Shown here in pieces: positions 45,090-62,987 of a stretch of DNA of 64,000 bases; the stretch's first letter is position 1, and each line of letters begins with the position of its first letter. The stretch comes from Gammaproteobacteria bacterium (GTDB lineage: Bacteria > Pseudomonadota > Gammaproteobacteria > SZUA-229), in assembly GCA_013041745.1 (NCBI GenBank), contig JABDRN010000028.1, positions 59,028-123,027 on the forward strand, read 5' to 3'. The notes beneath the pieces were generated by a model. That model saw only the letters and a list, made by a program, of their open reading frames with translations, had not been told where the DNA came from and searched no databases. Position numbers and translations under genes: made by a program.

Positions 45090-46502
45090 TTAAAGCTCGA
45101 GCTCCTTGATCTTTCTGGTCAGGGTGTTGCGTCCCCAGCCAAGTAATTTGGCAGCATCATTTTTTTTACCTTTGGTTTTTTGCAGTGCGGCTTCTATCAG
45201 TATCCCTTCCACCTGCGCGATAATCTTCGAAGCGATATTGGTTTCTCCCGATAGTAACTGTTGTTGCGCGGTGGTCGAAAGTATCTGCTTCCAGTCGCCA
45301 CCATTTTCAGCGTCGCTAATCTGGTCATTACTAAGAAGCTCGGCTGGCAGATCTGACAGGTGTACGGTTTGTCCGGAGGTCATGACTGCCAACCACTTAC
45401 AGGTATTCTCCAGTTGCCGAACATTGCCAGGCCAGTTGAGAGAAGTAAGGTATGCGATTGTTTCATCATCTATCGATTTGGGTTCCGCAGAATCGTCATC
45501 GATGGCCAGCTCTCTTACGGCACGCTGTAAGAACAGATTGAATAATCCCGGGATGTCCTCTTTACGCTCGCGTAGAGGTGGGAGCTGTATTCGGATGACA
45601 TTCAAGCGGTGGTAGAGATCTTCACGGAACAGTCCCTGCTTGACATTCTCTTCCAGATTCTGATGTGTTGCAGCGATAACACGAACATTGACCTTGATCG
45701 GGGTATGCCCGCCGACTCGATAGAAAACACCATCGGCCAGTACGCGTAACAGGCGAGTCTGCAACTCAGCAGGCATATCGCCGATCTCATCGAGAAACAA
45801 TGTGCCGCCATCTGCCTGTTCGAAACGGCCTTTTCGTAATGCCTGTGCACCGGTAAAAGCCCCTTTTTCATGACCGAATAACTCTGACTCTAACAGTTCT
45901 TTAGGTATAGCGGCGGTGTTCAATGCAATAAAAGCGTTATTGGCGCGTGGACTGTGTTTGTGCAGTGACAGTGCGACGAGTTCTTTACCGGTACCGGATT
46001 CGCCCGTAATCAGGACACTGATGACCGACTTTGACAAGCGCCCGATAGTACGAAAAACCTCCTGCATGGCAGGAGCTGCACCTATGATCTCTGGTCCTTC
46101 CTGATTGCTGTAGAGGTCGCTGCTGCTGTCCAGCTTTTTCTTGCACGCACGCTGAGCGACCTCAATGGCATCATCGATATCAAAAGGTTTTGGCAGGTAT
46201 TCAAATGCCCCTCCCTGGTAAGCAGAAACCGCACTATCAAGGTCTGTGTGTGCAGTCATGATAATGACTGGCAGGTCAGGGTGATCTGTCGAAAGCTGGG
46301 ATAATAACTCCAGGCCATCGATACCAGGCATACGTACATCAGTGATGATGGCGTCGGGCGTCTCCTGTTGTAGCCTCTGTAATATGGTATTGGCATTATC
46401 AAAACTGGTCACGATGAAGCCGGCACCTTCGAGTGCTTTCTGTAACACCCATCGAATTGAGTCGTCATCGTCAATGATCCAGATGTGATTCTGTGCAGTC
46501 AT
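45090..46502 (-). CDS. ntrC: Nitrogen regulation protein NR(I), NtrC/GlnG
   Basis: Receiver [14 protein letters not shown], sigma54 AAA+ ([21 protein letters not shown]) and HTH; sits downstream of ntrB and glnA. Confidence 0.9.
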
Positions 46503-47593
46503 TAATCTGCTCCATTATGTATATTTATAGGTAATAAAATCGTAAAAATAGTTTTATCTGGCTGGCTGGTAAACTCGATTAAACCATTGTGTTGCTGTAC
46601 CAGAGATTGTGCTATTGATAAACCGAGGCCTGTGCCTTCGGCATGCCCTGTGATCATGGGCATAAATATTTTTTCATGTAACTCTTCAGGTACGCCGCTG
46701 CCGTTGTCTTCGATTTCTATCTTTGCGACAAGGGCGTGAGTTTGAGTCCCGATCGTACAGTTCCGCTGTGCTCGTGTCCGATAGATGATCTTGCCATCAG
46801 AAGAGCCATCAGTGTTAGAGGTGATCGCTTTAACTGCGTTCCGCGTAATATTGAGTATCACCTGAATTATCATAGACTCATCAGCGTTCAACTCAGGGAT
46901 ACTGGGGTCGTAGTCTGCAACGACAGATACCTCATCATTCTCAGCGAGAACAAGTTTTCTGACGTGTTCCAGAATTTTATGAATATTGGTATCACTTTTC
47001 GTGGGAATATCTTTAGGGCCGACCATCCGGTCCAGCAGGTTTTTTAAGCGGTCGGCCTCATTGATAATGATCTGGGTAAACTGTTTGTTATCTTCATCGG
47101 TCAGCTCTCTTTCAAGCAGTTGGGCAGCACCTCGAATACCACCCAGAGGATTCTTGATCTCATGAGCCAGTCCGCGTAACAGGGATTTGCTGGCTTCATA
47201 CTGGCTGAGGATGCTGTCCTCATGTGAATGCTTATGCTGTGAATTTATGCGTATGAACTCTAGTAATAAATATTTACCTTCGCTCATATATTCTATCGGA
47301 GAAACGGAATAGTCTACCTCTATTGTCTTCTGGTTATGTAACAGCAGCTCACTTTCATAAACCGTATAAGGGTGGTTGGAAATCACCGACCGCTCCAGGC
47401 GGTCAAAAAACTCATATTCTTCGATGACCAGCTCACGTATATTTTTTTCCATCGCACGGTTGTTACTGACGTGGAAGAGCATCTCGGCTGCAGGATTAAT
47501 GCAGACGATCCGTAGGTCCTCGCCGATGACAATAACAGCAGAGTGCAGGTTATCGATGATTGTTTGTGGCGATTTATATTCTGTAGAAACCAT
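46502..47593 (-). CDS. ntrB: Nitrogen regulation sensor kinase NR(II), NtrB/GlnL
   Basis: PAS N-terminus, H-box HEIKNPLGGIRGAAQLL and HATPase_c. Stop overlaps the ntrC start. Confidence 0.9.
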   Translation of the reverse strand: MVSTEYKSPQTIIDNLHSAVIVIGEDLRIVCINPAAEMLFHVSNNRAMEKNIRELVIEEYEFFDRLERSVISNHPYTVYESELLLHNQKTIEVDYSVSPIEYMSEGKYLLLEFIRINSQHKHSHEDSILSQYEASKSLLRGLAHEIKNPLGGIRGAAQLLERELTDEDNKQFTQIIINEADRLKNLLDRMVGPKDIPTKSDTNIHKILEHVRKLVLAENDEVSVVADYDPSIPELNADESMIIQVILNITRNAVKAITSNTDGSSDGKIIYRTRAQRNCTIGTQTHALVAKIEIEDNGSGVPEELHEKIFMPMITGHAEGTGLGLSIAQSLVQQHNGLIEFTSQPDKTIFTILLPINIHNGAD

Positions 47594-48429: not shown

Positions 48430-49839
48430 TTACACGCTGTAGTACATATCGAACTCACAAGGATGTACCGATGCGCGGTAACGCTGGACTTCTTCGCTCT
48501 TCAAGTCAATGAAACCGTCGATCATGTCATCATCGAAGACACCGCCTTCGGTCAGGAATGCGCGATCTTCGTCCAGTGCTTTTAAAGCTTCATCAAATGA
48601 GAAAGCAACCTGTGGGATTTTGGCTTCTTCTTCTGGTGGCAGGTCATACAGGTCTTTGTCTGCAGCCGCACCTGGATCGATCTTGTTCCTGATACCGTCA
48701 AGGCCGGCCATCAGCATCGCTGCGAAACACAGGTATGGGTTAGCTGTATTATCACCGAAACGCACCTCGATACGGCGTGCTTTAGGGCTGGATACGTGAG
48801 GGATACGGATAGAGGCAGAACGGTTACGAGCAGAATATGCCAGCATAACAGGCGCTTCAAAACCGGGTACCAGGCGTTTGTAACTGTTGGTCGAAGCATT
48901 AGCGAATGCATTCAGCGCTTTGGCATGTTTGATGATGCCGCCGATGTAATACAGTGCTGTCTGAGACAGGCCGCCGTAGAGGTCACCAGAGAATGTATTT
49001 TCTCCGTCTTTGAAGATCGACTGGTGAACGTGCATACCGTTACCGTTATCACCGACCATCGGTTTTGGCATGAAAGTCGCGGTCTTTCCGTATGCATGCG
49101 CCACGTTGTGTACGACATATTTGTAGATCTGAACTTCGTCAGCTTTACGCACCATGGTGTTGAACAGCGCGCCGATCTCACACTGGCCTGCTGTTCCCAC
49201 TTCATGGTGGTGTACTTCTGTTTTACATCCCATGTCTTCCATAACCAGGCACATAGAAGATCGCAGGTCCTGCAATGAGTCTATCGGAGGAACCGGGAAG
49301 TAACCGCCTTTGACACCAGGACGGTGGCCCATGTTGTTGCCGTCGTAATCTTTACCAGTGTTCCAGGCGGCTTCTTCGGATTCGATCTTATAGAACACAC
49401 CGCCCATCTCGTCGCCCCACTGGACACCGTCGAAAACAAAGAACTCGTTTTCAGGACCGAAGTAAGCCGCATCGCCGATGCCGGTAGACTTCAGGTAAGC
49501 TTCAGCACGTTTCGCGATAGAGCGTGGGTCGCGGTTGTAGCCGGTCATGTCAGTCGGTTCGATGATATCGCATGTGATATTCATGGTGACTTCTTCACAG
49601 AACGGGTCGATAACCTGGGAATCACAGTCTGGCATCAGGATCATGTCAGATGCGTTAATACCTTTCCAGCCCTGAATTGACGAGCCGTCGAACATCTTGC
49701 CTTCGGTCAGACTGTCTTCATCAACGGTGTGTGACGGTACAGAAACGTGCTGTTCTTTACCCTGGGTATCAGTAAAACGAAAATCGACGAATTTAACGTC
49801 TTTTTCCTTAATCATATTTATAACGTCAGTTGCAGACAT
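48430..49839 (-). CDS. glnA: Glutamine synthetase type I
   Basis: Full-length GSI with conserved motifs including the adenylylation-site region (NLYDLPPEE). Confidence 0.95.
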
Positions 49840-49966: not shown

Positions 49967-50059
49967 AGGACCTTTAATCAACCCTGTTTTTTCTGGTGGC
50001 GACCGTCGACAGATAGCAGCGAGTCGTCGATCAGCAACAGGGCTCATCAAAGGTCCTTT
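49967..50059. repeat. About 93-bp imperfect inverted-repeat element in the glnA upstream region
   Basis: AAAGGACCTTTAATCAACCCTG at 49967-49988 and CAGGGCTCATCAAAGGTCCTTT at 50038-50059. Arms match 19 of 22. Each end is itself an 11-bp palindrome AAAGGWCCTTT. Confidence 0.45.
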
Positions 50060-50169
50060 GTTAACAAGGGGTGATTTTGCACGAAAGCGTTCAATAATGG
50101 AAACCCCATATTAAGTGCCATCGTGCGATGTAACTAAAAAAAGTAACAGGCAGATGGCACAGACTTTCA

Positions 50170-50190
50170 TGCGCACCAATGTGGTGCGCA
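50170..50190. promoter_or_regulatory. NtrC-type dyad TGCGCACCAatgTGGTGCGCA (glnA upstream activating site)
   Basis: Perfect 9-3-9 palindrome matching the NtrC consensus. About 330 bp upstream of the glnA start and abutting the CDF stop codon. Confidence 0.55.
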
Positions 50191-51333
50191 TCAGTAAAAT
50201 TGTAGCTTGCACTCACCGACCGATCCGACTTGTTTCGTTGCCTCATAAAATTCTTTCTGCAAAGAAGGCACGTCTTCGATCTTGTTGAGAAATTTATATG
50301 GTAAGCCGGCTTCGACGCTGATATGCCCATCCAGGTAGTGCAGGGTTATGTCATCAATATTTTTCAAGGTCTCATGTTTTGACCATTCCTGGTTCAGCGC
50401 CAGCAGTAATTCACTGCGAAGCGGTAAGTTTTTACAGCTTGCCGCACTCTCATCGTCTTCCGGATCAATATGGACAGTGACATCGTTGACTTCATCAAAC
50501 TTCTCTATTAATGCGGTCTCGACGCTCTCAGAGATATGGTGACCTTCCGAAACACTCAGTTTGGGCGATACCTGTATATGTACATCAACCAATGCATTGT
50601 GTCCCATACGGCGGCTGCGTAATAGATGCAATTCACGGACATCATCGATATCCAGAATAGTGTTTTTTATCTGTTCGACCATCTCTGGTTCCAGTGCTGT
50701 ATCGACCAGCTCCTGTACACTCTGCCGGCTCAGGTCGAGCCCGATCTTGCCGATCATCAGGGCGACAATAATTGCAGCGATGGCATCGACCAGCGGATAA
50801 CCGATAAAGGTGGCGCCGATACCGAAGAGTACGACGATCGAGGAAACTGCATCACTGCGGTGATGCCAGGCATTTGCCTCGAGTAACGGCGATCGGATCT
50901 TATGCGCGACGGCACGTGTCGCATGATACAGGGCTTCATTGCTAAGGATAGAAATAGCAGCAATAATCAGGGTGAAAGATGCTGGTATGGCGATATCTTC
51001 CGGATTTTCCAGACGCAGTATGGCGTCATAAGCGATGCCACCGGCAACACCCATCAACAAGATGCCGAGCGCCACGGTGGCGAGCGTTTCATAACGGCCA
51101 TGACCATAAGGGTGGTCTTCGTCTGCGTCTTCACCGGCATGCTTGGCAGCGACCAGTACCATGGCATCGCTGGCAAGGTCAGAGAGCGAGTGGATGCCAT
51201 CAGCGAGCAGGGCCTGCGACTGCCCCATGATACCGCCAACTGTTTTGATCACGGCGAGGAACAGGTTTACGGCTACGCCCCAGAGGGTGATACGGTTGGT
51301 TTCCTTTTTGCGCTGCTCGATAGAAATTTCCAT
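50191..51333 (-). CDS. Cation diffusion facilitator (CDF) transporter with an extra C-terminal domain of about 80 aa
   Basis: Six TM with the metal-site motif HSLSDLASD...; the cytoplasmic CTD is followed by an additional Cys-containing tail. Confidence 0.75.
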   Translation of the reverse strand: MEISIEQRKKETNRITLWGVAVNLFLAVIKTVGGIMGQSQALLADGIHSLSDLASDAMVLVAAKHAGEDADEDHPYGHGRYETLATVALGILLMGVAGGIAYDAILRLENPEDIAIPASFTLIIAAISILSNEALYHATRAVAHKIRSPLLEANAWHHRSDAVSSIVVLFGIGATFIGYPLVDAIAAIIVALMIGKIGLDLSRQSVQELVDTALEPEMVEQIKNTILDIDDVRELHLLRSRRMGHNALVDVHIQVSPKLSVSEGHHISESVETALIEKFDEVNDVTVHIDPEDDESAASCKNLPLRSELLLALNQEWSKHETLKNIDDITLHYLDGHISVEAGLPYKFLNKIEDVPSLQKEFYEATKQVGSVGECKLQFY

Positions 51334-51372
51334 GGCCTTATTTTGATTGCCGGGGATTGATGGTGCAAGTAC

Positions 51373-51891
51373 TTATTGAGGTTTTATCTTTTTCAGACCG
51401 TTATTCAGAGCATCTTCAATATATCCGCCATATAGGTCTAATGTATTTATACCCAGAATACGTTGCGATACTTCGTTGCCATCGCCGTCGAAAAATAAAA
51501 TAGTCGGTGTCAGTACAACGTCTATATCTCTGGCAAAAACATCGGGAGTCGTATTATTACCGGAAAAATCGATTATCGTCTGATAACTGTCGAGATCGAT
51601 CTTACGTATCAGTACGATCCCGGAATAATAATCATTGCGCAACATAGGCTTGATGAACTCTTCTTCCAGCAGATCGCAATAACCGCAGTAACTGGCGGAG
51701 ACTTCCAGCATGATTATTTTGTTTTCTTCGCGAGCCACTTTTGCCAGGCTCGAAAAATCTGTTGCATACTGGATGACCACATGAGGCAATATATCTTCCT
51801 CATCTTCCAGTTCATAGGCATCATACGTTTCGTTGGCCGATGACATTGATGGATATATTTGCAACAGCAAGATGAAAATAAGGTGTTTCAT
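51373..51891 (-). CDS. Periplasmic thioredoxin-fold protein
   Basis: Signal peptide; CGYC active-site motif. Confidence 0.6.
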   Translation of the reverse strand: MKHLIFILLLQIYPSMSSANETYDAYELEDEEDILPHVVIQYATDFSSLAKVAREENKIIMLEVSASYCGYCDLLEEEFIKPMLRNDYYSGIVLIRKIDLDSYQTIIDFSGNNTTPDVFARDIDVVLTPTILFFDGDGNEVSQRILGINTLDLYGGYIEDALNNGLKKIKPQ

Positions 51892-51921
51892 GGTGAAGAT
51901 ATTGCTACCTGGAGATGTATA

Positions 51922-52488
51922 TTATGAGTCAAACTCATCGTTATTGTTGAAGTTTCTAAATGCAGATTCATCCTCGAATTCTACCATCTCGGGCTGTTGT
52001 GATTTTACCCATTGCATCAGTCGTAACTGACCATCGATGAGAGCTTGCCCGATAGATCGATGCAGGTTTTTATGCAGCATCATGACCAGCTGCAATCTAT
52101 TATTCGAAGTGGCGATATGAAGATGGGTTTCTGGCTTGCTGCGGCTGAATTTATCAATTATGTCCGTTGGTAAACAAGGGGTGTCGCAGGCAACGATTAG
52201 CACCCTGTCGTGCAGGGCATGAGGCAATGCAGCATAGATACCCGCCAGTGGTCCAAGATATTGCTCAGTCTCATCAGCGATAACTGTCTCAGAGTATCGT
52301 TGATATTGCTTGGTATTACGATTCGCGCTTATCACGATGTCATCGACCTGGGGTATAATTTTTTCGATGACATGTTCGATGAGAGGTTTACCTCTGTACT
52401 CGAGCAGCCCCTTATCTACACCACCGACACGTTTGCCTTCTCCTCCGGCAAGGATGATGCCGCTGACCTGCTCAGCGATCTTGTTCAT
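51922..52488 (-). CDS. mobA: Molybdenum cofactor guanylyltransferase MobA
   Basis: MNKIAEQVSGIILAGGEGKRVGGVDKGLL... matches the MobA N-terminus. Start placed at the internal Met. Confidence 0.8.
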   Translation of the reverse strand: MNKIAEQVSGIILAGGEGKRVGGVDKGLLEYRGKPLIEHVIEKIIPQVDDIVISANRNTKQYQRYSETVIADETEQYLGPLAGIYAALPHALHDRVLIVACDTPCLPTDIIDKFSRSKPETHLHIATSNNRLQLVMMLHKNLHRSIGQALIDGQLRLMQWVKSQQPEMVEFEDESAFRNFNNNDEFDS

Positions 52489-52863
52489 GAGAATAAACAG
52501 GTGATATTGCCTGATAACATAACGGTACTGCAAAGTTTCCACGTCATCTCGGTTTTGTCCACTGGTAATGGCGGGCTATGTTTCATAAGGCAGTATAAGG
52601 TTGCGTTAGATCAGGATAAATTCTAACAAGGTATCATATCTCAAGCCTTGATCGTTTTGTGATAATTATAAGGTGCCTTCCATGGCGTGTGAGGAGTCTC
52701 GTCCTTGTATGATTCAAACTCTGTAATGTGATTCAGTTGAGCACCAAAACTACTGGTAGCAGGCGCTTCACCTAAATGAGTTTACAGGGTGTTCAGACAT
52801 AGTCATGTGCAACATGCATGCCAGCGATAAAACCGGTATCTGCAGTCGATTACAAGGTGAAGT

Positions 52864-52880
52864 TGCACAGTTAGGGTGCA
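52864..52880. promoter_or_regulatory. NtrC-like dyad TGCACagttagGGTGCA upstream of the ANTAR regulator gene
   Basis: TGCAC-N6-GGTGCA spacing matches NtrC sites. Additional GTGCAA half-sites occur at 52806, 52877 and 52918. Confidence 0.4.
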
Positions 52881-52973
52881 AAATCGGTGTCGATATGAGT
52901 TATTCAGGTGCAATGCTGTTCCCTAAAATGGTTTTCTCTGGCTATAACAGGCATATACAGTACCTATATCATT

Positions 52974-52989
52974 TGGCATGACTATTGCT
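52974..52989 (+). promoter_or_regulatory. Sigma54 promoter TGGCATGactaTTGCT driving the ANTAR regulator
   Basis: Near-consensus -24 GG and -12 TTGC with correct spacing. It overlaps the ORF-track ATG at 52978, which argues for a downstream start. Confidence 0.6.
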
Positions 52990-53025
52990 ATTTGTTACAT
53001 GTATGAAAACCAAGAAGATTTGTAT

Positions 53026-53598
53026 ATGGACCTGATCCTTGTTGCCGACAACCTGGATAGCGCTCAGCCATTATTGAGAGTTGCATCAAAGTCTGGCTAT
53101 CGAATAGTGAAGTTGATCGAAGTGGATGCTGATGCCAGCAGGTATGTGGAATCATTGCGCCCTGACGCCCTGATAGTGCTCAGTGATGAAATAGACCGGC
53201 TAGTGTTACGGCAGATGAAAGCTATCACCGCAAAACAACCCTTACCGATGGTTGTTTTTACCCGTGATTCTAATCCCGATTCTATCGATGCCGCTGTAAA
53301 AGCCGGTGCTAGTACTTATGTAGTTGACTGTAATGATCCTGAGAGGCTGGGCTCTCTGCTGGGTGTGGCCAGGTCGAGGTTCGATGAGCAGCAACGCTTA
53401 CAGAAAGAGCTGCTGCAGACAAAGATCGCACTGTCCGACCGGAAGAATGTAGAAAGAGCAAAAGGTATCATCATGAAAACCAAGAGCGTAAGTGAAGACC
53501 AGGCTTATAACGCGATGCGAAAACTGGCGATGAACCATAATAAACGCATAGGTGAAATAGCTGAGCAGATAATCTCAGCGTCTGAAGTCCTGGTCTAA
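53026..53598 (+). CDS. NasT/AmiR-like response regulator with C-terminal ANTAR RNA-binding antitermination domain
   Basis: Receiver-like N-terminus (MDLILVADN...) and ANTAR (LSDRKNVERAKGIIMKTKSVSEDQAYNAMRKLAMNHNKRIGEIAEQII). Confidence 0.8.
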   Translation: MDLILVADNLDSAQPLLRVASKSGYRIVKLIEVDADASRYVESLRPDALIVLSDEIDRLVLRQMKAITAKQPLPMVVFTRDSNPDSIDAAVKAGASTYVVDCNDPERLGSLLGVARSRFDEQQRLQKELLQTKIALSDRKNVERAKGIIMKTKSVSEDQAYNAMRKLAMNHNKRIGEIAEQIISASEVLV

Positions 53599-53697
53599 TA
53601 GACGTTATTAAAGTTCAGTCATCAGCTGGATTGATCTATGTTCTCCTGACCCATCATGACAGCGTAAAATATATAACATAAGTCTTTCAGGTGAAAA

Positions 53698-54669
53698 ATG
53701 GGATGGCTAGATAAATCAATCAGTAAACAGCGTAGTTTTATAGAAGGTTTATTACTTGATCCTTTGAGCAAGCTTGCCGATATATGTGTTGACAGCTGGA
53801 GTGACAGGAAAAAGCTGGATCAGAGTCTGAAAGCCTATCTGCAGGCGAAAACAGATCACCGCTGTTCTTTATTGTATGCGATAGACATAAAGGGCCTGCA
53901 GTACAGCAGTAATATCTCAAAAGATATGGTCGATGAAGCCATCATCGGTCAGGACCTGTCGCACAGGCCTTATCTAAAAAGCATCGATAATGGCAGTGAA
54001 ACACAGTTGTTGCTTAGTGATGTCTACATCGATAAGCAGACCCGCAAGCCCTGTATAACAGTGCTACATGAGGTCAGGTCGAATCATGAGGTCATCGGCT
54101 ATATCGCTGCTGATTTCGGACTGAAAGATCTGCCGTTAAAAAACGTTAATGAGTTACAGTCATATGAATGGCGCCAGATAAAAGGCGATCCTTCCATACG
54201 TGGTACGATGTTTCAGCAGACGCGGGTCCGCAGTTCGATGGATCAGCATATCGATGAAGTGCTCGATGTGGTCGAGTCCCTGATGACAGAGCAGGGGGTG
54301 TTTCACGTAAAGCTGCATTTCTCCAGTTCACGAGCGACACTATGGTCATACAGTGATCCTTATCGATATCGTCTGCATGTATTGGACGAGATAATTAATC
54401 CTAAAGTTTGTCTCGTCTATGAAAAAGTGCCTTACCCTGAGCAGGCCCTGGTCACGGCCGGTATGGTGCACAACGTGTTAAAAGCTTTCAAGCTTTTGAG
54501 GGATGCTGATGAAACTATCTACCTGCGGGCCGCGTCATTGAATATAATGAACGGGCTGGTCGGACTCAACTTCTCCTGCGACGGCTCTCATTATATGCCA
54601 GCCAATGAATTTCTCGAAAAAGACCTGAGGTTCTGGTTTGGCGAAGAAACTATCTGTGTCAATGCCTAG
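53698..54669 (+). CDS. Cytoplasmic Cache/PAS-like sensor protein; putative ligand-sensing partner of the ANTAR regulator
   Basis: No TM. Cache-like motif RPYLKSI...LLLSDVYIDKQTRKPCITVLHEV...EVIGYIAADFGL. Sits where nasS would be but is unrelated to NrtA-type binding proteins. Confidence 0.5.
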   Translation: MGWLDKSISKQRSFIEGLLLDPLSKLADICVDSWSDRKKLDQSLKAYLQAKTDHRCSLLYAIDIKGLQYSSNISKDMVDEAIIGQDLSHRPYLKSIDNGSETQLLLSDVYIDKQTRKPCITVLHEVRSNHEVIGYIAADFGLKDLPLKNVNELQSYEWRQIKGDPSIRGTMFQQTRVRSSMDQHIDEVLDVVESLMTEQGVFHVKLHFSSSRATLWSYSDPYRYRLHVLDEIINPKVCLVYEKVPYPEQALVTAGMVHNVLKAFKLLRDADETIYLRAASLNIMNGLVGLNFSCDGSHYMPANEFLEKDLRFWFGEETICVNA

Positions 54670-54684
54670 ATATTAATGATAGAT

Positions 54685-54709
54685 AAAAAAAGGCAGCCTG
54701 TCGGCTGCC
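54685..54709 (-). terminator. Intrinsic terminator (minus-strand orientation) after the PhoX-like gene
   Basis: GGCAGCC-tgtc-GGCTGCC with the T-run on the minus strand (A7 on the plus strand). Confidence 0.6.
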
Positions 54710-54779
54710 CCACTAAGTTCATGACAGAGGTGTCGGACCTCACGGTGAATGTGTCACCATCATGATCAAGGCACGGGTC

Positions 54780-56117
54780 TTAGTCGTTGTCTTTCCAGTG
54801 GCCCTTGCCTTTACGTGTTATCGCCCACGTGGCATCGCCATCATCAGCTGCTGAGTGCTGTACGTTGACATACAGGGTTTTGTCATCAGTCGGGCTGAAG
54901 TAGATGCCGGTACCTTCTGCACCCGGGTCGGTCAGAGAAGCGAATAAGTCAACGTCTTTAGATGCTCCATACTCGTTAGTTTTTGTAGAAGCGAACCAGA
55001 TGTCAGATGGTTTGTTATCTTCGATCATGATCAGGTCACCGTTTGGTGCTTCTGCCAGGTTGTCGACGCTGTCGAAACCAGTCTGGTGGCCTTCCTGACC
55101 GGGCTTGCCTATTTCAACAGGAGCGTTAACGCCAGCTTTAACGAAGTTAGTGACTTGCATTGACTGAAGATCAACAGCGATCACACGGCCTTCGTAGTAC
55201 TCTTTGCCGTATTCGTCACGAGGGCCTTCAGTGATAGCAACGTACAGATTGCCGTCGATGATTTCCAGGTCTTCAGGACGCTGGTAGCTTGCGCCGCCAG
55301 CCAGAGTGCCGGCGCGACGAGCATCAGTAGCGTCGATAGGGCCCAGCCATTCGCCCTGTCCAGTATTATCGGCACGATGCTCATTGTTAAGAGGGGTTTT
55401 AATGCCCAGAACGTACAGATCACCAGAAGACAGGTCACCGTAATTGTGAGGAACGAACTTGTAAATGCCGCCACCACATGGAATGCCCAGGTCACAGCCT
55501 GAAGTACGGCCGCGGTGCTCATCTACTACATAAACGTTACCATCAATGTCGAAATCGATGCCTTCGTGCGCCAGGCGGCCAACAGCAGGACGATCATGAA
55601 TTACTGCAGCAGTAGTCAGGTCAGCATCCAGTTCGATTTCGAAAAAACGCCCGCCCGTTGTTTCTTCAGCGAATACAACTGTGCCCCATGGGGACCAGCG
55701 AATACCGTCCAGGGCATTATATGAAGGGTCCTGAGCCAGGATGGAAGTTGCACCGGTTTCCAGGTCAACAACAGTAACTGTGCCGCCTTCTGGCTGGTTG
55801 GCCGGGAAGCGCAGTTCATGAGTGCGATACATAAAACGACCAGCCATCGGGCCAGTTTCATTGACAACGTTCATGTCATGCCAGTCGTCGCGGCCACCGT
55901 CATAGATGTTCAGGTCTGCTTCATCAGAAACCACAGTCTGTTTGAAGCCTTTAGGCAGTTTCCATGGCGCAGTCGGATCCCAGTTAGCTGCGTTAGCAGA
56001 TTCTTCGAGTGGTTTGAAGCTGAAGCTGTTGTTTTTTTTATCATCATCTGCCTGTACTGTGCCAGAGATGGTTAACGCTGCAGTGATAGCAGAAGCCAGT
56101 AAGTGATTTTTGTTCAT
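54780..56117 (-). CDS. Secreted DUF839/PhoX-family beta-propeller (phosphatase-like) protein
   Basis: Signal peptide MNKNHLLASAITAALTISGTVQA after SD AAGGAAAAA; DUF839-like motifs (SPWGTVVFAEE, NGDLIMIEDN). Confidence 0.5.
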   Translation of the reverse strand: MNKNHLLASAITAALTISGTVQADDDKKNNSFSFKPLEESANAANWDPTAPWKLPKGFKQTVVSDEADLNIYDGGRDDWHDMNVVNETGPMAGRFMYRTHELRFPANQPEGGTVTVVDLETGATSILAQDPSYNALDGIRWSPWGTVVFAEETTGGRFFEIELDADLTTAAVIHDRPAVGRLAHEGIDFDIDGNVYVVDEHRGRTSGCDLGIPCGGGIYKFVPHNYGDLSSGDLYVLGIKTPLNNEHRADNTGQGEWLGPIDATDARRAGTLAGGASYQRPEDLEIIDGNLYVAITEGPRDEYGKEYYEGRVIAVDLQSMQVTNFVKAGVNAPVEIGKPGQEGHQTGFDSVDNLAEAPNGDLIMIEDNKPSDIWFASTKTNEYGASKDVDLFASLTDPGAEGTGIYFSPTDDKTLYVNVQHSAADDGDATWAITRKGKGHWKDND

Positions 56118-56440
56118 TAAATTTTTCCTTAAGCAAGGTTGAAAATATTTATAACCAGGAGTCAATGTGGTTATGTCGTTCTCAGTCATTCCTGAGAGCG
56201 GATATATTCATCGAGTTGTGTGAAAGATTTATTAAACAAAATTGACGGTTTTATGAATATATATGTCGTATGACAGATATGCAGTTATTGTTACAACATT
56301 ATTACTAAAAATTTTTGTAACCGATGCAGACGAACTGGTTTGGTGCGGATGGAATCTTTATGGGCTTCTATGGTGCAATAGTTGCCTGGAATGAGTAAAA
56401 GTTATTATTAAATCTTACGTATATTAACGACTTGAAAAAC

Positions 56441-56456
56441 TGGCACGTTCTATGCT
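56441..56456 (+). promoter_or_regulatory. Sigma54-like promoter TGGCACGttctaTGCT of the flavo-heme operon
   Basis: Consensus -24 TGGCACG; the -12 is TGCT (one mismatch) with correct spacing. About 20 nt upstream of ANTAR hairpin P1. Confidence 0.45.
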
Positions 56457-56474
56457 TATGCATTAATAAGTGAG

Positions 56475-56546
56475 CTGGTCAATGGCGGCCAGTCTGAATA
56501 AATACATTTTTTAGATAATTATCTAAGACACAAAGCAATGGTGCTT
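56475..56546 (+). ncRNA. ANTAR-target dual hexaloop hairpins (P1 56475-56492 CUGGUC[AAUGGC]GGCCAG; P2 56533-56546 AAGC[AAUGGU]GCUU) in the operon leader
   Basis: Both loops are hexaloops with A at position 1 and G at position 4, the ANTAR-target signature. P2 overlaps the 5' arm of the terminator. Confidence 0.55.
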
Positions 56547-56586
56547 GTATGCGGATTAGTTTCGTATGCAAGCGCCATTTTTTTTG
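56538..56586 (+). terminator. Leader intrinsic terminator (attenuator) upstream of the flavoprotein gene
   Basis: A 16-bp stem (AUGGUGCUUGUAUGCG / CGUAUGCAAGCGCCAU with 3 G-U pairs), 9-nt loop, then T8. Located 25 nt before the start codon. Confidence 0.7.
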
Positions 56587-56610
56587 TGCCGTTTAAAAGT
56601 CGATAGTTTT

Positions 56611-58629
56611 ATGAGCGCAATGCTAGAAAAGATCGTACCTGTAGCACAGGTCTCATCAGATAACGCAGTTTGTATCGCTGCCGAGACGGCCGCAATCGTC
56701 ATCGTTGGCAGTGGTCCTGTCGGTATGCAGTTTGCCAATGAACTCATGCTACGTAATACCGATGCACCCGTTATCGTTTATGGCAGCGAGCCTGTGCAGC
56801 CATACAACAGGGTAAGGCTCTCAGACTATCTTGCCGGTGAGGTATACCGTGATGCGCTTTCGATCGAGGAGCCTGTTTCAGGTAATGCAAATATCGAGTT
56901 TCGTTATAACTGTGCCGTCGAGTGGATCGATAAGAAAGAAAGGTTTATAACCGATGCCAGTGGCAGGGTGCAGCGATATTCAAAGCTGGTGCTGGTCACA
57001 GGGTCAACACCATTTATACCGATGTTTGGCAACCGCCATTACGAAGGTGTCTATACCTTTCGTACACTGGGCCAGGCGGATGAACTGCTCTCCAGAAAAA
57101 TCCGTACCAGGCATACTGTTGTCATAGGCGGAGGTCTGCTGGGCATTGAAACTGCGCGTGCCATGCAGAAGTATCATACAGATATAACCATCGTCGAACA
57201 TAACAGATGGTTGATGATGCAGCAGCTCGATGAGAAGGGTTCATCATATCTTGAGGACTACATCAAAAAGAACGGGATAAATATAGTACTCGATGACAGT
57301 GTCGTCAGTGTTACGGGAAATGGCCGTGTCGAGGGTGTAACGCTACGTAGCGGTAAAACAATAGAATGCGATACATTAATCGTAGCCGCCGGAGTTCGAC
57401 CGAATATTTCGCTGGCCAGGGATGCCGGACTGGTCTACCACAAAGGCATCCGTATCGATAATCATTTGCAGACCTCAGAGAAGGATATCTTTGCTATCGG
57501 TGAGTGTGCAGAACATGACGAAAATGTTTACGGGCTGGTAAAACCAGGTTTTGATCAGGCGGCTGTTCTTGCGGAGCGTTTGACAGGCGGTGATGCTCAG
57601 TATGTCGGGTCGATAAGTACGACAAAGTTGAAGGTCATGTCACAGGCAGTTTTCAGTGCTGGACGCAATGGTATAGATGAAGAGCCTGGTGCGTCCGTTA
57701 GTGAATATGTTTTCAGCGATAAGGATGCTGGTATATATCGAAAGATTCGCATCTTCGGGAATCGTATCATCGGTGTGATCGCCGTCGGTGAATGGCATGA
57801 GAGTGCTCTTATCAATGAAGCCATACAGGAAAGACGCAAGTTCTGGTTCTGGCACCTGGTCCGTTTCAAAGCCACTGGAAATATCTGGGGTGATGCAGAT
57901 GATATCGATGTATCGACATGGCCAGCGTCTGCGACCGTATGTAACTGTACCGGGGTGACACGAGGCAGATTAAGCAGCGTAGTTAACAGTGGATGTGAGG
58001 ATGTCGCCTGCCTTACCAGGATGACGCGCGCTGGAAGTGTCTGTGGCTCATGCAAACCGTTACTGGCGGAGATGTTAGGTGAGTCAGCTGATATCGAACC
58101 GGTACGGTCATGGCGGGGGCTGCTGGCTTTATCTGCACTGACTGTTGTTATCACAGTGATGTTCGCATTGTTCTGGCCGATACCGTTTGCTGATAGTGTG
58201 CAGTACGAAATACGCTGGGATGAATTATGGCGAGACTCACTGTTCAAGCAGATCAGTGGTTTCAGTATGCTGGGGCTGATCGTAATCGGACTTTTCATCT
58301 CGCTGCGAAAGCGCAGTTCTAAAGTCAGCTTCGGAGATTATGACCTGTGGCGTATATCTCACATCGTGCTCGGTATCGTCGCCCTGGCAGTGCTCATCGC
58401 GCATACCGGTTTTCGTTTAGGCAATGAACTGAATATGCTGCTGATGATTAATTTTTTATTGCTGGCTGCGGCCGGTGCAAGCGCCAGTACTGTCGTGGCA
58501 ACCGAGCATCGCATGGTGCCGGCAGTCGCAAAGAAGAAGCGCAAGATGTGGAACAAGGTGCACCTGTTTCTGTTCTGGTCTCTGCCTGTACTCCTGGGTT
58601 TTCATGTCTTGAAGACATATTACTACTGA
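56611..58629 (+). CDS. NirB-N-terminal-like NAD(P)H flavoprotein (FAD/NAD plus BFD [2Fe-2S]) fused to a C-terminal His-rich 5-TM domain
   Basis: GSGPVG and GGGLLG Rossmann motifs; GECAEHDENVYGLVKPGFDQAAV (compare NirB GECASWNNRVFGLVAPGYKMAQV); BFD-like CNCTGVTRGRL...CGSCKP; then five hydrophobic helices with His residues. No siroheme or 4Fe-4S domain. Start at the internal Met after the terminator. Confidence 0.75.
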   Translation: MSAMLEKIVPVAQVSSDNAVCIAAETAAIVIVGSGPVGMQFANELMLRNTDAPVIVYGSEPVQPYNRVRLSDYLAGEVYRDALSIEEPVSGNANIEFRYNCAVEWIDKKERFITDASGRVQRYSKLVLVTGSTPFIPMFGNRHYEGVYTFRTLGQADELLSRKIRTRHTVVIGGGLLGIETARAMQKYHTDITIVEHNRWLMMQQLDEKGSSYLEDYIKKNGINIVLDDSVVSVTGNGRVEGVTLRSGKTIECDTLIVAAGVRPNISLARDAGLVYHKGIRIDNHLQTSEKDIFAIGECAEHDENVYGLVKPGFDQAAVLAERLTGGDAQYVGSISTTKLKVMSQAVFSAGRNGIDEEPGASVSEYVFSDKDAGIYRKIRIFGNRIIGVIAVGEWHESALINEAIQERRKFWFWHLVRFKATGNIWGDADDIDVSTWPASATVCNCTGVTRGRLSSVVNSGCEDVACLTRMTRAGSVCGSCKPLLAEMLGESADIEPVRSWRGLLALSALTVVITVMFALFWPIPFADSVQYEIRWDELWRDSLFKQISGFSMLGLIVIGLFISLRKRSSKVSFGDYDLWRISHIVLGIVALAVLIAHTGFRLGNELNMLLMINFLLLAAAGASASTVVATEHRMVPAVAKKKRKMWNKVHLFLFWSLPVLLGFHVLKTYYY

Positions 58630-58650
58630 GCATTCAAAACGGACAGGGTT

Positions 58651-60072
58651 ATGAATGTGAGTGAGACGGCACTGAAGTGGATCTTATGGATAGTACTAAC
58701 AACGATAATTGTTATATGGCTAGGTTATTCGATGCTTTCTGAGTCAGCAGATAAAACGATATTTATGCCCGGGCCATTAAGTCCGGGGCATCATCAGCTG
58801 GCAGATGCCTGTGGTGCTTGCCATGCTGATGCTTTTGGCGGCGGAGAAGTGCTGCAGCAGTCCTGTGTTGACTGCCATGGCGAAGACAGGGTGAAGCCTT
58901 TTGATTCTCACCCAGCAAAAAAATTTAAGGATCCACGTAATGTTGAGCTCTTAGAAAATATCGATGCCCTGATGTGTACCAGCTGCCATACAGAACATCG
59001 TCCAGAGATCACGGCAAAAGATGGCGTGACACAGCCGATCGATTTCTGTGTTCACTGTCACCAGGATGTTGCTGAGGAGCGACCGTCACATGAAGGTATG
59101 GCCTTTGATACCTGTAAAGATTCTGGCTGTCACAATTTTCATAATAATCGTGCTCTGTATACCGACTTTCTGATTAAGCATCTCGATGAGCCGCCGACAT
59201 TGAAACAAGTCGTGCTGCCCGCAAAAGAGTATCTCGATGTTATCGATGAAGTCGTCGAGTACCCCCGAGAAAAATATCCACTGACTCAACTCGAAGAAAA
59301 AGATATCGATGCCGTGGAACGGCTGACTGTCAGTCCAGAGATAAAAAAAGACTGGCTCGAAACATCACATGCTAAATCGGGTGTCAATTGTACAGCATGC
59401 CATATAACGGAGGATGGTAGCGGCAGTGAGAAATGGACTGACCATCCTGAGCACCAGGCCTGCTCGAGTTGCCATAGTGTGGAAGTATCGCGTTTTACAG
59501 AGGGTAAGCATGGCATGCGTCTTAAACAGGGACTGTCACCGATGACGCCAGAGAATGCCATGCTGCCGATGAAAGAAGCTGCGCAACATGAAGATCTTAC
59601 CTGCAGCAGCTGCCATGGCGCTCATCGATTCGATGTGGTGTCGGCCGCTGTCGAATCATGCCTTGGCTGTCACGATGATGACCATAGCCTCGCTTACGAG
59701 CAGTCGCCACATTATCAGCTGTGGCAGAAAGAGATAAGCGGTGAAGCTGAAGCTGGCACCGGCGTTTCCTGCGCCAGTTGCCACATGCCACGTATCAGTT
59801 ATGACGTCAGTGAATGGTCAAGTCGCATAATCGTCGACCACAACCAGAGTGCAAACCTGTCGCCCAACAGCAAGATGATCCGTTCCAGTTGCCTGCACTG
59901 TCATGGCCTGGAGTTTACCTTGGAAGCATTGATCGACGTGAATATGATCAACAATAACTTCACTGGAAAGCCCGTTATTAATAGCGAAACGATGGACCTT
60001 GCCGACAGCGAAAACCAGAGACGCCTGAAGGCGGCGGCTGAAGATGAAGATGCTGGCATGTTCGGTTTCTAG
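58651..60072 (+). CDS. Membrane-anchored multiheme cytochrome c (10-11 heme sites); NapC/NrfH-like tetraheme N-module plus an additional multiheme domain
   Basis: N-terminal TM, then CGACH, CVDCH, CTSCH, CVHCH within about 130 aa, then CTACH, CSSCH, CSSCH, CLGCH, CASCH, CLHCH and one CX4CH (CKDSGCH). Confidence 0.8.
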   Translation: MNVSETALKWILWIVLTTIIVIWLGYSMLSESADKTIFMPGPLSPGHHQLADACGACHADAFGGGEVLQQSCVDCHGEDRVKPFDSHPAKKFKDPRNVELLENIDALMCTSCHTEHRPEITAKDGVTQPIDFCVHCHQDVAEERPSHEGMAFDTCKDSGCHNFHNNRALYTDFLIKHLDEPPTLKQVVLPAKEYLDVIDEVVEYPREKYPLTQLEEKDIDAVERLTVSPEIKKDWLETSHAKSGVNCTACHITEDGSGSEKWTDHPEHQACSSCHSVEVSRFTEGKHGMRLKQGLSPMTPENAMLPMKEAAQHEDLTCSSCHGAHRFDVVSAAVESCLGCHDDDHSLAYEQSPHYQLWQKEISGEAEAGTGVSCASCHMPRISYDVSEWSSRIIVDHNQSANLSPNSKMIRSSCLHCHGLEFTLEALIDVNMINNNFTGKPVINSETMDLADSENQRRLKAAAEDEDAGMFGF

Positions 60073-60134
60073 AGAGTAGCAGAAAACTAACCGTTGATTT
60101 TTCAACATAAACAAACTTGACCTTAGAGGTGATT

Positions 60135-60743
60135 ATGAAAAACATGAAACACAATTTGAAACGAAAGCTGATGATTGGCACTGCAGTATCTGCTATCGCA
60201 GCTGCCACGGCTGTCAGTGCCGAGGTCTCTGATGCAAAAGTATCTGTAAAAGCGATGGCAGATGCATTACACCTGGTGATGGATTCCGATCGTTCGGTAT
60301 ATACCAAGAAGATCGTGAACAGGCTGGTGAAAAAAGAGAAAGTGATCAAAGCGTCCGAACACTTCGAAGATGAAAAAGCACTGGTGTTGCCAGCACAGAT
60401 GTTCAGGTTCGGTTCGGAGATGGCGGCAAAGCGAGCAGAGAAACTGGATGATGTTAATTTCAGTTATACCCTGCAGTCGCTATGGCCTATCAATAAACAG
60501 AATGCGCCGAAGACCAATGCAGAAAAAGCAGGTTTGAAATATGTCGCGGAGAACAAGGGTAAAAATTATTACACGACCGAGAAGCTTGGCGGGGTAAATT
60601 ATTTTACCGCAGTTTACGCAGATACGGGTGTCGCACCGGTATGTGTTTCATGTCATAACAAGCACCCGGACACACCGAAAAAAGATTTTAAGATCGGTGA
60701 CGTAATGGGTGGCGTAGTTATCCGTATACCGGTTGAAGGCTAA
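60135..60743 (+). CDS. Periplasmic monoheme c-type protein, DUF3365/Tll0287-like (PAS-like heme c)
   Basis: Signal peptide; single C-terminal CVSCHNKH. SD AGAGGTGATT directly before the ATG. Confidence 0.5.
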   Translation: MKNMKHNLKRKLMIGTAVSAIAAATAVSAEVSDAKVSVKAMADALHLVMDSDRSVYTKKIVNRLVKKEKVIKASEHFEDEKALVLPAQMFRFGSEMAAKRAEKLDDVNFSYTLQSLWPINKQNAPKTNAEKAGLKYVAENKGKNYYTTEKLGGVNYFTAVYADTGVAPVCVSCHNKHPDTPKKDFKIGDVMGGVVIRIPVEG

Positions 60744-60754
60744 TAGATAGCACT

Positions 60755-61156
60755 ATGTTGACCGGACTAGGTAACATTATATCTCTTGCATTCTCTGTTG
60801 TAGTCTTTACCACGGTCATGGTATCAGAGGCGCTGGCGGATAATGCGGATTATATTCAGTCAGGTGATGAAGCACTGCAACAGGGCCGAGGCCTGTGGCT
60901 GGAGAACTGCGAGGGATGTCATGGTTATGGTATCGCAGACGCACCGATACCTATGCAAGCTGGCGACTGGAAGCACCGCGTGATAAAGGAAAGAGAGGTT
61001 CTATATCGTCATGCTATAGAAGGTTTTATCGGTGAGGACTATAGCATGATGCCGGCACGCGGCGGTAATGAAGAATTAAACGACGACCAGGTTAAAGCGG
61101 CGGTGGATTATATGCTGTTCCTGGCAAATTTTTATATCAAACAACAAGACAATTAA
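60755..61156 (+). CDS. Class I cytochrome c (c5-like)
   Basis: Signal peptide, CEGCHGYG, and a distal Met region (DYSMMPARGG). Confidence 0.75.
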   Translation: MLTGLGNIISLAFSVVVFTTVMVSEALADNADYIQSGDEALQQGRGLWLENCEGCHGYGIADAPIPMQAGDWKHRVIKEREVLYRHAIEGFIGEDYSMMPARGGNEELNDDQVKAAVDYMLFLANFYIKQQDN

Positions 61157-61166
61157 CGAGGTGATT

Positions 61167-61592
61167 ATGATAACTCCACAACAGAAAGAACTGGTACAAA
61201 AAACATGGGTGATGGTCGTGCCTATCGCTGATACGGCCGCCGAGCTTTTTTATGGCCGATTATTCGAGCTGGAGCCCGAATACAAGAAGATGTTTAAAAA
61301 CGATATGACAGAGCAGGGTAAAAAGCTGATGAAGACGATCAATATCGCTGTAGAAGCGCTTGATGATGTCGAACCACTGGTCCCGGTGCTAAAAAAGATG
61401 GGTGCTGACCATGCAGGTTATGGCGTAAAAGAGCGTGACTACAACGTCGTCGGTGCAGCCCTGTTATGGACGCTGGAAAAAGGTCTGGGTGACGCCTTTA
61501 CCGATGAGGTCAAAAATGCCTGGGGTGCAGTCTATGAATTACTGGCAAGCGTGATGAAGTCTGGTGCAGCAGAAGCAGAACAGGCAGCATAA
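61167..61592 (+). CDS. Single-domain bacterial globin (Vitreoscilla-Hb / flavohemoglobin N-domain-like)
   Basis: Aligns to VHb: B10 Tyr (FYGRLF), E7 Gln, proximal His (GADHAGYGV), and ...NVVGAALLWTLEKGLGDAFTDEVKNAWGAVYELLASVM. Same GAGGTGATTATG start context as the 60135 gene. Confidence 0.8.
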   Translation: MITPQQKELVQKTWVMVVPIADTAAELFYGRLFELEPEYKKMFKNDMTEQGKKLMKTINIAVEALDDVEPLVPVLKKMGADHAGYGVKERDYNVVGAALLWTLEKGLGDAFTDEVKNAWGAVYELLASVMKSGAAEAEQAA

Positions 61593-61645
61593 GATTTAAG
61601 GTTTACTCCACAGGAACACAGGGACGCAGGGAAGCACTTATTAAC

Positions 61646-61680
61646 AGGGCCAGTGGACATCAGTTCACTGGCCCATTTCT
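61646..61680 (+). terminator. Putative terminator ending the flavo-heme-globin operon
   Basis: GGGCCAGTGGAC-atca-GTTCACTGGCCC followed by ATTTCTGTAT (weak T-run). Confidence 0.45.
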
Positions 61681-61686
61681 GTATAT

Positions 61687-61998
61687 CTAATAATGAACGG
61701 CCAGCCAGATGGTTTCTGTATCCGGGGCGGTCCATGACACCTTGTGTCTTTCATGTGCAGGTATGTTTAGATGATCACCCTGTTTGAGGCTAAACTTCGA
61801 TCCATCCGGGAAGGTTAATTCGGCGGCACCCTGCAACACGATTATCCACTCGTTCTTGTCCTGATCATACCAGCCGCTATCCGGAGAAGTATGCCCTTTT
61901 GAGATGATCCTCTCGATCTTTATGCTTTCACTATCGATGAGCGGATTGAATATTTCCTGGTCCATATTTTCAGGGATGTCATCAAAGATATTATCCAT
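61687..61998 (-). CDS. Cupin-domain protein
   Basis: Two cupin motifs (GHTSPDSGWYDQDKNEWIIVLQG; GDHLNIPAHERHKV). Confidence 0.6.
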   Translation of the reverse strand: MDNIFDDIPENMDQEIFNPLIDSESIKIERIISKGHTSPDSGWYDQDKNEWIIVLQGAAELTFPDGSKFSLKQGDHLNIPAHERHKVSWTAPDTETIWLAVHY

Positions 61999-62210
61999 GA
62001 TCAGTCCTCATGATTAATGTGGAATATCGGCAAGCTGAATTTGAATATATTAGCCAGTTCATGCAGTTTGTCACTCAGCTAGTCGGTCGTTTTTACCTTG
62101 TAGGCAAGAGGTTTGCTCAAGGCTGCTAGCGCTCTTATTCTTGCTGAAAATTAGATCAGTGATTGTCTTAACCATGGCACGCACACCCTAAGCCTTTGAT
62201 GGAACCTGGC

Positions 62211-62465
62211 CTATTTACGGAATTCAGTGATCTTTTCAAGTTCATAGATCGCGTCTGATATCGTCTCAAGCTTGCTCTCGAGTATGGCCTGGGCGTCATA
62301 GAGCCCCCGGTTGTAGAAATACGGGCCTATCTCTTCAGAGAAGAAGTCGAGCAGGAACTGGGCATCGAACTGGCCGATCTCCTGCTCAAGTTCCTCTGTA
62401 AAATAAAGCTGGATCTTCCTGCTGATGATTTCTTTTTCTTCTTTGCTGAATTCTATATCTGACAT
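62211..62465 (-). CDS. Small conserved hypothetical protein (DUF2164-like)
   Basis: 84-aa acidic helical ORF. Confidence 0.4.
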   Translation of the reverse strand: MSDIEFSKEEKEIISRKIQLYFTEELEQEIGQFDAQFLLDFFSEEIGPYFYNRGLYDAQAILESKLETISDAIYELEKITEFRK

Positions 62466-62650
62466 ATTATTTTCCCTGTCTATAATCGACCGGTGCGGCA
62501 GTTGAACGCATGGCAGGCTATTTAACGATAAAAAACTGAGACCAACTACCTTCGCATGAGACGGTTTCTATGTTATTTGTTTCTTACGATTATGGCATAG
62601 TTGCTGGTAAATATTTTTACCCTGAATATCGGTGGCTTGCCACCCTGGGT

Positions 62651-62980: not shown

Positions 62981-62987
62981 AGTTACT

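Follow-up and report, generated by a model that had tools for sequence, protein, structure and literature searches.

A NasT-type ANTAR antiterminator gene with a soluble Cache-fold neighbour in the NasS position

Just two kinds of partner are, to our knowledge, known for ANTAR antiterminators that work without a kinase: NasS and AmiC, both of the periplasmic-binding-protein fold. A 64-kb stretch of gammaproteobacterial DNA on contig JABDRN010000028.1 (the window, by which we mean that whole stretch) raises the question of whether a protein of another fold can take this role. It carries a gene for a NasT-type ANTAR antiterminator with a degenerate receiver (53026–53598, + strand; 190 residues) followed by a gene for a 323-residue protein (53698–54669, + strand) to which we give the name CacheX; both are open reading frames (ORFs) with the coordinates of the initial annotation. 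Our answer, held with about as much confidence as doubt, is that the two form a NasS/NasT-like two-protein antitermination switch in which the soluble, Cache-fold CacheX replaces the binding-protein-fold NasS.

An ANTAR gene and the gene in its NasS slot

The product of 53026–53598 scores 65.3 bits as a member of the ANTAR family (PF03861; cut-off 27.3; E = 4e-18), and its match to Response_reg is weak, with 21 bits where the Pfam cut-off is 30.2. In the PDB it is most closely related to 6wsh, to Rv1626 and to NasR in the ANTAR domain of the latter. The sequence YVVD(C) replaces the conserved Lys of the receiver, ADN replaces the acidic pair and Leu occupies the acceptor position. Asp at the position of the Lys is common to 52 of 57 NasT-type relatives, and the acceptor position is Asp in 39 of the 57. 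Because the receiver is devoid of phosphorylation residues, control by a kinase is unlikely and a non-kinase protein partner is plausible; control by a histidine kinase of the EutV–EutW type was rejected, as the Lys, the acidic pair and the Asp of the acceptor position are all missing.

The ANTAR and CacheX genes lie on the same strand with a gap of 99 nt, in which a terminator scan predicts none, and a Shine–Dalgarno-like AGGTGA sits 5 nt ahead of the CacheX ATG. Strand, gap and the lack of a predicted terminator make the co-transcription proposed in the initial annotation plausible. A putative sigma54-type promoter (TGGCAT-N5-TTGCT, 52974–52989, + strand; consensus match only) is located about 36 nt ahead of the start codon of the ANTAR gene, and all nine loci that were examined, L080 of Thiobacillus among them, have TGGCAY-N5-TTGCW, likewise a consensus match only, at the equivalent site upstream of that gene (L-numbers denote the related loci used for comparison). 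An alternative, longer ANTAR ORF from 52978 was judged unlikely because this promoter overlaps its ATG and orthologues are called at 190 residues.

Seen from the ANTAR gene, the same neighbour recurs. CacheX lies directly downstream of an ANTAR relative of 64–88% identity in eight genome loci (L001, L002, L004–L007, L009 and L012), these being the genome loci of the window clade that have a CacheX gene behind such an ANTAR relative, and it does so in 5 of 5 metagenome ANTAR relatives of at least 65% identity for which there is downstream sequence. The flanks vary while the pair persists, as in L001 and L007, where no target operon is adjacent. Among ANTAR relatives at 34–48% identity, NMT1_2 accounts for 33 of the 46 flanking genes tested. 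It is tightly coupled to the ANTAR gene in 14 of these loci, with an overlap of 4–8 nt in 10 of them, which is the NasT–NasS arrangement; in 18 other loci it stands further downstream behind hexaloop hairpins, as an nrtA-like target and not a partner. Because distant NasT-type relatives hold a tightly coupled NMT1_2 gene at that position, CacheX occupies the NasS slot. No NMT1_2 gene was found in the window or within 6–8 kb of the ANTAR–CacheX loci of the clade, and the initial annotation was right to place a Cache-like protein where a NasS-type sensor would be.

Fold and predicted ligand of CacheX

CacheX has no transmembrane segment (its highest Kyte–Doolittle 19-residue mean is 1.12), as befits the soluble protein first described. 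Residues 1–145 (53698–54132, + strand) constitute, by profile and Foldseek matches, a long N-terminal helix and a Cache/PDC ligand-binding module, and the Cache/PAS-like motif that drew attention to the protein (RPYL...SDVYIDKQTRKPCITV...VIGYIAADF) is the core of this module. Pfam dCache_1 (PF02743) matches residues 57–145 with E = 1.1e-5 and 25.5 bits, below the cut-off of 45, and the match spans just positions 69–155 of the 240 of the profile. A profile of the CacheX family (79 members) aligns to the sensor domain of KinD over residues 11–142 (E = 1.5e-6) and gives weaker matches to PctA, Tlp3 and Mlp24. The AlphaFold2 model of CacheX from the same 79-sequence alignment has a predicted local distance difference test score (pLDDT) of 86.6 and a predicted template modelling score of 0.84; it supersedes a first run with 56 close homologues, less diverse than the 79, in which the C-terminal half was poor (pLDDT 66). 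Searched against the PDB with Foldseek, the model finds Cache/PDC sensor domains only (YkuI, KinD, 2p7j, 3lid, Tlp3, DctB, CtaA and PctA), with a probability of 1.00 against many Cache structures. Structure prediction, proposed with the initial annotation as a check, yields a sensor fold and not an enzyme fold.

The amino-acid motif of dCache_1 sensors (AA_motif) consists of Y121, R126 and W128, which contact the ligand's carboxyl group, and Y144 and D173, which contact its amino group (PctA numbering; PMC8915833). In CacheX the equivalents of R126, Y144 and D173 are R90, Y110 and D139, kept in 77, 77 and 73 of the 79 family members, respectively; W128 corresponds to Y92, which is Tyr or Phe in 78 of 79, and Y121 to Q85, which is Gln or Arg in the family. 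The motif is therefore represented by three identical positions, one conservative replacement (Trp to Tyr/Phe) and one change, as read from HMMER alignments that are marginal (E 0.0025–0.15); the diverse CacheX profile aligns to PctA free of gaps, and the motif stretch is gap-free in most of the family. KinD, a pyruvate binder, has no Asp equivalent to D139. With four positions of the motif kept, a ligand bearing carboxylate and amino groups is predicted, rather than an N-oxyanion. We tentatively favour such a compound, for example an amino acid, at a confidence that falls just short of even; nitrate or nitrite is a doubtful candidate, and some other ligand an unlikely one. The gene context of CacheX argues in a direction away from this pocket-based prediction. 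The N-oxyanions, nitric oxide (NO) and hydroxylamine put forward in the initial annotation have no support in the sequence, the pocket keeping most of the amino-acid motif.

Residues 146–323 (54133–54669, + strand) comprise a linker and, by model and conservation, a second alpha/beta PAS/PDC-like domain, with the predicted topology alpha-3beta-3alpha-3beta-alpha for the C-terminal half. The majority of the invariant residues of the family fall in this half, whose conserved motifs are the near-invariant WRQIKGDPSIR of the linker, HFSSSRATLW, LREADETIYLR and FSCDGSHY. Pfam and PDB sequence searches with this half found no relative, and an internal duplication of CacheX was rejected when one half, aligned to the other with hhalign, showed no signal (probability 0.1). 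Alignments of whole CacheX to double-Cache structures extend over 240–280 columns, and the modelled fold suggests that the C-terminal half is a second PAS/PDC-like module. No recognisable enzymatic or DNA-binding domain, and no HisKA or HATPase, is found in CacheX among the Pfam, PDB and structure matches.

The family search returned 4673 matches and 558 representatives at 50% identity, nearly all of them stand-alone proteins of about 320 residues, and at least 590 species genomes carry CacheX. The carriers are sulfur- and iron-oxidising Beta- and Gammaproteobacteria, and the members are annotated as 'hypothetical' or 'PDC sensor domain-containing'. Two fusions were seen (P0139 and P0149), one joining a NarK-like transporter of the major facilitator superfamily to CacheX (736 residues; L166, 365–2575; P0139 or P0149) and the other joining CacheX to a receiver domain (469 residues; L167, 676–2085; P0139 or P0149). 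Each is found on one short Logan contig only, which makes them weak evidence; they may be real, or they may be artefacts of assembly or frameshift. A divergent second CacheX paralogue of about 43% identity is present in the close relatives L001 (10245–11198, − strand) and L008 (7196–8149, − strand), 1.3–2.4 kb from the first copy and on the opposite strand. These paralogues form a tree clade of their own, and the 64-kb window has none.

The downstream leader, its operon and the surrounding genes

A candidate RNA target of the ANTAR protein lies 1.8 kb downstream of CacheX, in the leader of the presumed target operon. It begins with a second sigma54-type promoter (TGGCAC-N5-ATGCT, 56441–56456, + strand; consensus match only), and L005, L006, L012, L086 and L120 have similar sites. 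Hairpin P1 (56474–56493, + strand; GCTGGTC-AATGGC-GGCCAGT) has a 7-bp stem and the hexaloop AATGGC, with A at position 1 and G at position 4, and hairpin P2 (56533–56546, + strand; AAGC-AATGGT-GCTT) has a 4-bp stem and the hexaloop AATGGT. A terminator scan places an intrinsic terminator at 56537–56585 (+ strand), with a 19-bp stem (56537–56579) followed by eight T, and an RNA fold gives −57.8 kcal/mol. P2 and the terminator are mutually exclusive because the loop and 3′ arm of P2 belong to the 5′ arm of the terminator. In sequence and fold, P1, P2 and the terminator agree with the published definition of the ANTAR substrate, two hairpins whose hexaloops have A at position 1 and G at position 4, the second overlapping a terminator (PMC3369931). 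Equivalent leader terminators are present in L004, L006, L009, L012, L035, L042, L086 and L110. The P1 and P2 stems covary across nine loci, with 96% of cells paired and compensatory changes in 9 of 11 pairs, a count that is biased upward because the hairpins were chosen by a hairpin scan. A generic dual-hairpin scan gives 2 matches in the window versus 0.8 in shuffles, so that the motif is not rare by chance. As the bare motif is not a rare one, the weight rests on its position, on the overlap with the terminator, on its conservation and on how often NasT-type loci have this class of leader; AAxGGY dual-hairpin leaders are frequent there. The second match in the window (24088–24042, − strand), which is followed by a T-run, has the loops ACGGCA and ACCGCC, outside the AAxGGY class, and is probably due to chance. 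An Rfam scan of 50000–64000 found no known RNA family.

The presumed target operon (56611–61592, + strand; Pfam and NCBIfam matches) has five genes. The first (56611–58629) encodes the NAD(P)H/FAD/BFD part of NirB without its sirohaem domain, joined to three or four C-terminal membrane helices that appear as hydrophobic segments. It is followed by genes for a decahaem cytochrome c (58651–60072) with ten CxxCH motifs and weak NrfA-like similarity, a Tll0287-like protein (60117–60743), a mono-haem cytochrome c (60755–61156) and a globin (61161–61592), all on the plus strand. The same operon follows the ANTAR–CacheX pair in L004/5, L006, L009, L012 and L086. It may be an unconventional nitrite- or nitrogen-oxide-reducing system that passes electrons from NAD(P)H across the membrane; a literature search for a NirB–multihaem–Tll0287 operon found no description. 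The longest ORF of the NirB-like gene begins at 56566, inside the leader terminator, and the real start is probably the ATG at 56611. Automatic annotation would therefore bury the terminator in coding region.

A cluster of glnA (48430–49839, − strand; Gln-synt), a 181-residue ORF, an ntrB-like gene (46502–47593, − strand; PAS, HisKA and HATPase_c) and an ntrC-like gene (45090–46502, − strand; Response_reg, Sigma54_activat and HTH_8) lies 3–8 kb upstream of the ANTAR gene. The ntrC-like/ntrB-like pair is the probable activator of both sigma54-type promoters, and the ANTAR–CacheX pair most likely controls the nearby nitrogen-regulated redox operon.

The computation shows the folds, the order of the genes and how it is conserved, the leader with its covarying stems and the degenerate receiver; to these we add, as inferred parts of a mechanism, a dependence on NtrC, an interaction of the ANTAR protein with the leader, an interaction of the ANTAR protein with CacheX and the sign of that interaction, and a ligand. 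Under nitrogen limitation, NtrC and sigma54 would transcribe both the ANTAR–CacheX pair and the leader of the downstream operon; such dual control by NtrC and NasT is established for nas operons (PMC10783516; PMC3795266). Leader transcripts would halt at the 19-bp terminator unless an ANTAR dimer binds the two AAxGGY hexaloop hairpins, and this binding would block formation of the terminator, since the second hairpin shares bases with it. The ANTAR protein itself would not be switchable by phosphorylation. Instead, a small molecule would bind to CacheX in the Cache pocket of the N-terminal module, and CacheX would so decide on antitermination, probably by retaining the ANTAR protein or letting it go in the manner of NasS and AmiC.

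Some other genes around the pair differ among the loci. A PhoX-like gene (beta-propeller phosphatase family; 54780–56189, − strand) with its own terminator lies between CacheX and the operon and looks like a local insertion, because it is missing at that position in L004, L006, L009, L012 and L086. A MobA-like molybdenum cofactor guanylyltransferase gene (51922–52542, − strand) is divergent from the ANTAR gene, and relatives keep this arrangement, a hint that the genome encodes a molybdopterin nitrate reductase at some other place; the listed GTG start of the MobA-like gene is probably over-extended, as orthologues are called at 184–188 residues. Several relatives have genes for a NarK-type nitrate/nitrite transporter and a Ser/Thr-kinase–PP2C fusion between mobA and the ANTAR gene (L004, 3599–6885; L086, 1464–4745). 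The window has at this place (52543–53025) just a 480-nt intergenic region, the two genes being missing or located elsewhere.

Weighing the proposed switch

Seen from CacheX, the pairing is much less regular. A survey of 83 species-level CacheX loci, with neighbours clustered and scanned against Pfam, found no fixed genomic partner, as nothing dominates. The ANTAR gene is the commonest single neighbour cluster and is present in 12–13 of the 83 loci (about 16%). The ANTAR-linked copies fall into three separate clades of the CacheX tree. The first is the clade of the window. In the second (L035, L037 and L042), the ANTAR gene and the same target operon are divergent, with glgC between. The third consists of the Thiobacillus loci L080 and L049, where the stop codon of the ANTAR gene overlaps the CacheX start (ATGA) and where identity to the window proteins is only 25–32% for ANTAR and 46–47% for CacheX; in L080, the pair is followed by a leader of the NasT type and by an NMT1_2 gene that is nrtA-like. 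The initial annotation stated that a lack of co-conservation of the two genes would refute its proposal. From the ANTAR side, co-conservation is full within the clade and recurs in Thiobacillus, but from the CacheX side it extends to only about 13 of 83 loci.

Besides the upward bias of the covariation count and the chance frequency of the bare hairpin motif, several observations weigh against a dedicated switch. About 70 of the 83 CacheX loci (some 84%) have no ANTAR gene within 6 kb, and the neighbours of CacheX are heterogeneous, with amt, hisI, pyrC, glgC, argB-like, asparaginase and rhodanese genes among others. In the window clade itself, an upstream ANTAR gene is missing from four copies (L003, L008, L010 and L011), and L013, which is cut at a contig end, is uninformative on the pairing. 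A comparison of residues common to the ANTAR-linked copies of all three clades but rare in unlinked copies gave no convincing positions, and linked and unlinked copies preserve the best-conserved part of CacheX to the same degree. A NasS gene could also be located elsewhere in the genome, outside the window. With an ANTAR gene nearby in 13 of 83 loci, the CacheX family as a whole is not a dedicated ANTAR partner, and the equal conservation of linked and unlinked copies is easier to reconcile with a general function than with dedicated binding of ANTAR.

These points are the strength of the explanation that survives best beside ours, which we consider rather unlikely all the same. In it, CacheX has a function of its own, as a cytoplasmic metabolite sensor or regulator of a general kind. 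In this clade it would be encoded on one NtrC/sigma54-driven transcript with the ANTAR gene and would exert no control over the ANTAR protein; the antiterminator would be governed by its expression level only, by a NasS encoded at an unlinked site or by a different signal, for example cyclic di-GMP, which also modulates NasT of Pseudomonas putida. The scattered contexts of the many members with no ANTAR neighbour, and a C-terminal domain that is near-invariant whether ANTAR-linked or not, would be expected of such a protein. Against it stand the persistence of the pair when its flanks change and even the adjacent operon is gone (L001 and L007), the overlapping stop and start codons in Thiobacillus, and the position of CacheX, which is exactly that of NasS in related systems. 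ANTAR genes are, moreover, rare in genomes, so that 13 adjacencies among 83 loci, in three clades, are by our rough estimate far above chance.

If CacheX does act on the ANTAR protein, the sign of its action could be the reverse of the one that we propose. A ligand-bound CacheX that promotes dimerisation or RNA binding of the ANTAR protein, as a positive co-factor, would resemble the phosphorylation of EutV and be the opposite of the sequestration of NasT by NasS; it would also supply the dimerisation that binding to the dual hairpin needs and that a receiver without phosphorylation residues leaves unexplained. We consider this improbable, as NasS and AmiC, the sole characterised non-kinase partners of ANTAR proteins, are sequestering inhibitors. 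Least probable of all is that the C-terminal half of CacheX, which has no sequence relatives, works as an enzyme, or else as a redox module that binds a cofactor or metal, so that the protein is catalytic or senses NO or redox state by a route other than the Cache pocket: its invariant polar residues (Q160, D164, R168, H203, S210, S211, D220, R268, D271, R277, N282, N285, S293, C294 and D295) and a His/Cys set (H203, H207, C294 and H298) spaced i and i+4 on predicted strands would suit it, but the predicted topology is PAS/PDC-like, whole-protein structural matches are to sensor domains only, no enzyme family is matched and the residues of the Cache pocket are strongly conserved as well.

The antitermination switch that we favour has close counterparts with different partners. 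In the AmiC–AmiR system of amidase regulation in Pseudomonas aeruginosa, an unphosphorylated ANTAR protein with a pseudo-receiver is controlled through sequestration by a second protein that binds a ligand. AmiR and the ANTAR protein of the window have the fold of the ANTAR part in common, whereas AmiC is of the periplasmic-binding-protein fold and binds amides, and the genes and targets differ. NasS–NasT of Paracoccus denitrificans, Azotobacter vinelandii and Pseudomonas is closer. It has a NasT-type receiver–ANTAR protein with YVVD, a co-oriented gene directly downstream, and a sigma54/NtrC-type promoter, two A..G hexaloop hairpins and a terminator before nitrogen-oxide-related genes (PMC3795266; PMC10783516), and nitrate/nitrite-dependent dissociation of the sensor–antiterminator complex is a property of it that was studied with purified proteins (PMC3795266). 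In contrast, the proposed partner here is a Cache/PDC protein with a novel C-terminal domain instead of the NrtA-like NMT1_2 protein, the operon consists of genes for a membrane flavoprotein with the N-terminal part of NirB, for a decahaem cytochrome and for more haem proteins instead of nirBD–nasA, and the ligand may not be nitrate.

The N-terminal module of CacheX shares its fold and the equivalents of R126, Y144 and D173 with the dCache_1 amino-acid sensors PctA, Tlp3, Mlp37 and CtaA (Gumerov et al. 2022, PMC8915833), while W128 is Tyr or Phe and Y121 is Gln or Arg in CacheX, and its score is under the Pfam threshold. Those sensors are extracytoplasmic, held between two membrane helices, whereas CacheX is soluble and cytoplasmic, the sequence of its second module does not resemble that of the membrane-proximal PDC domain, and it has no kinase, methyl-accepting chemotaxis or cyclase output. 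By structure and by profile, the N-terminal module is matched best by the C-terminal domain of YkuI and the sensor domain of KinD, both of Bacillus subtilis. The former is cytoplasmic, as CacheX is, but each belongs to a larger signalling enzyme, YkuI being an EAL protein and KinD a histidine kinase. A literature search for an ANTAR–Cache pairing found nothing relevant.

Some neighbours of CacheX point beyond antitermination. The CacheX gene of L003 comes after nirBD–nasA and amt lies directly upstream of CacheX in three or four loci, which together with the two fusions hints at a link to nitrogen. One broader reading, speculative and to our mind unlikely, makes CacheX a widespread family of soluble sensors whose Cache pocket reads an amino-acid-like metabolite of nitrogen status and whose novel C-terminal domain relays it by protein–protein contact. 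If it is true, the pocket would be inherited from the universal amino-acid sensor and the role would be somewhat PII-like, with the NasT-type antiterminator as one of several clients, among which nitrate transport (the NarK fusion) and ammonium transporters (the amt neighbours) could be others.

A Cache-fold partner, if true, would be a third solution for control of ANTAR proteins without a kinase, and CacheX would be a rare stand-alone cytoplasmic Cache protein with an assigned role. The regulated operon is unusual in its own right, and its predicted control by sigma54 and ANTAR places it in nitrogen assimilation or the handling of nitrogen oxides. Should an amino acid be the ligand and not nitrate, these bacteria would regulate the assimilation of nitrogen oxides by a logic that departs from the textbook scheme. 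More broadly, the pair gives a testable handle on thousands of 'hypothetical' proteins in environmentally important sulfur and iron oxidisers and symbionts.

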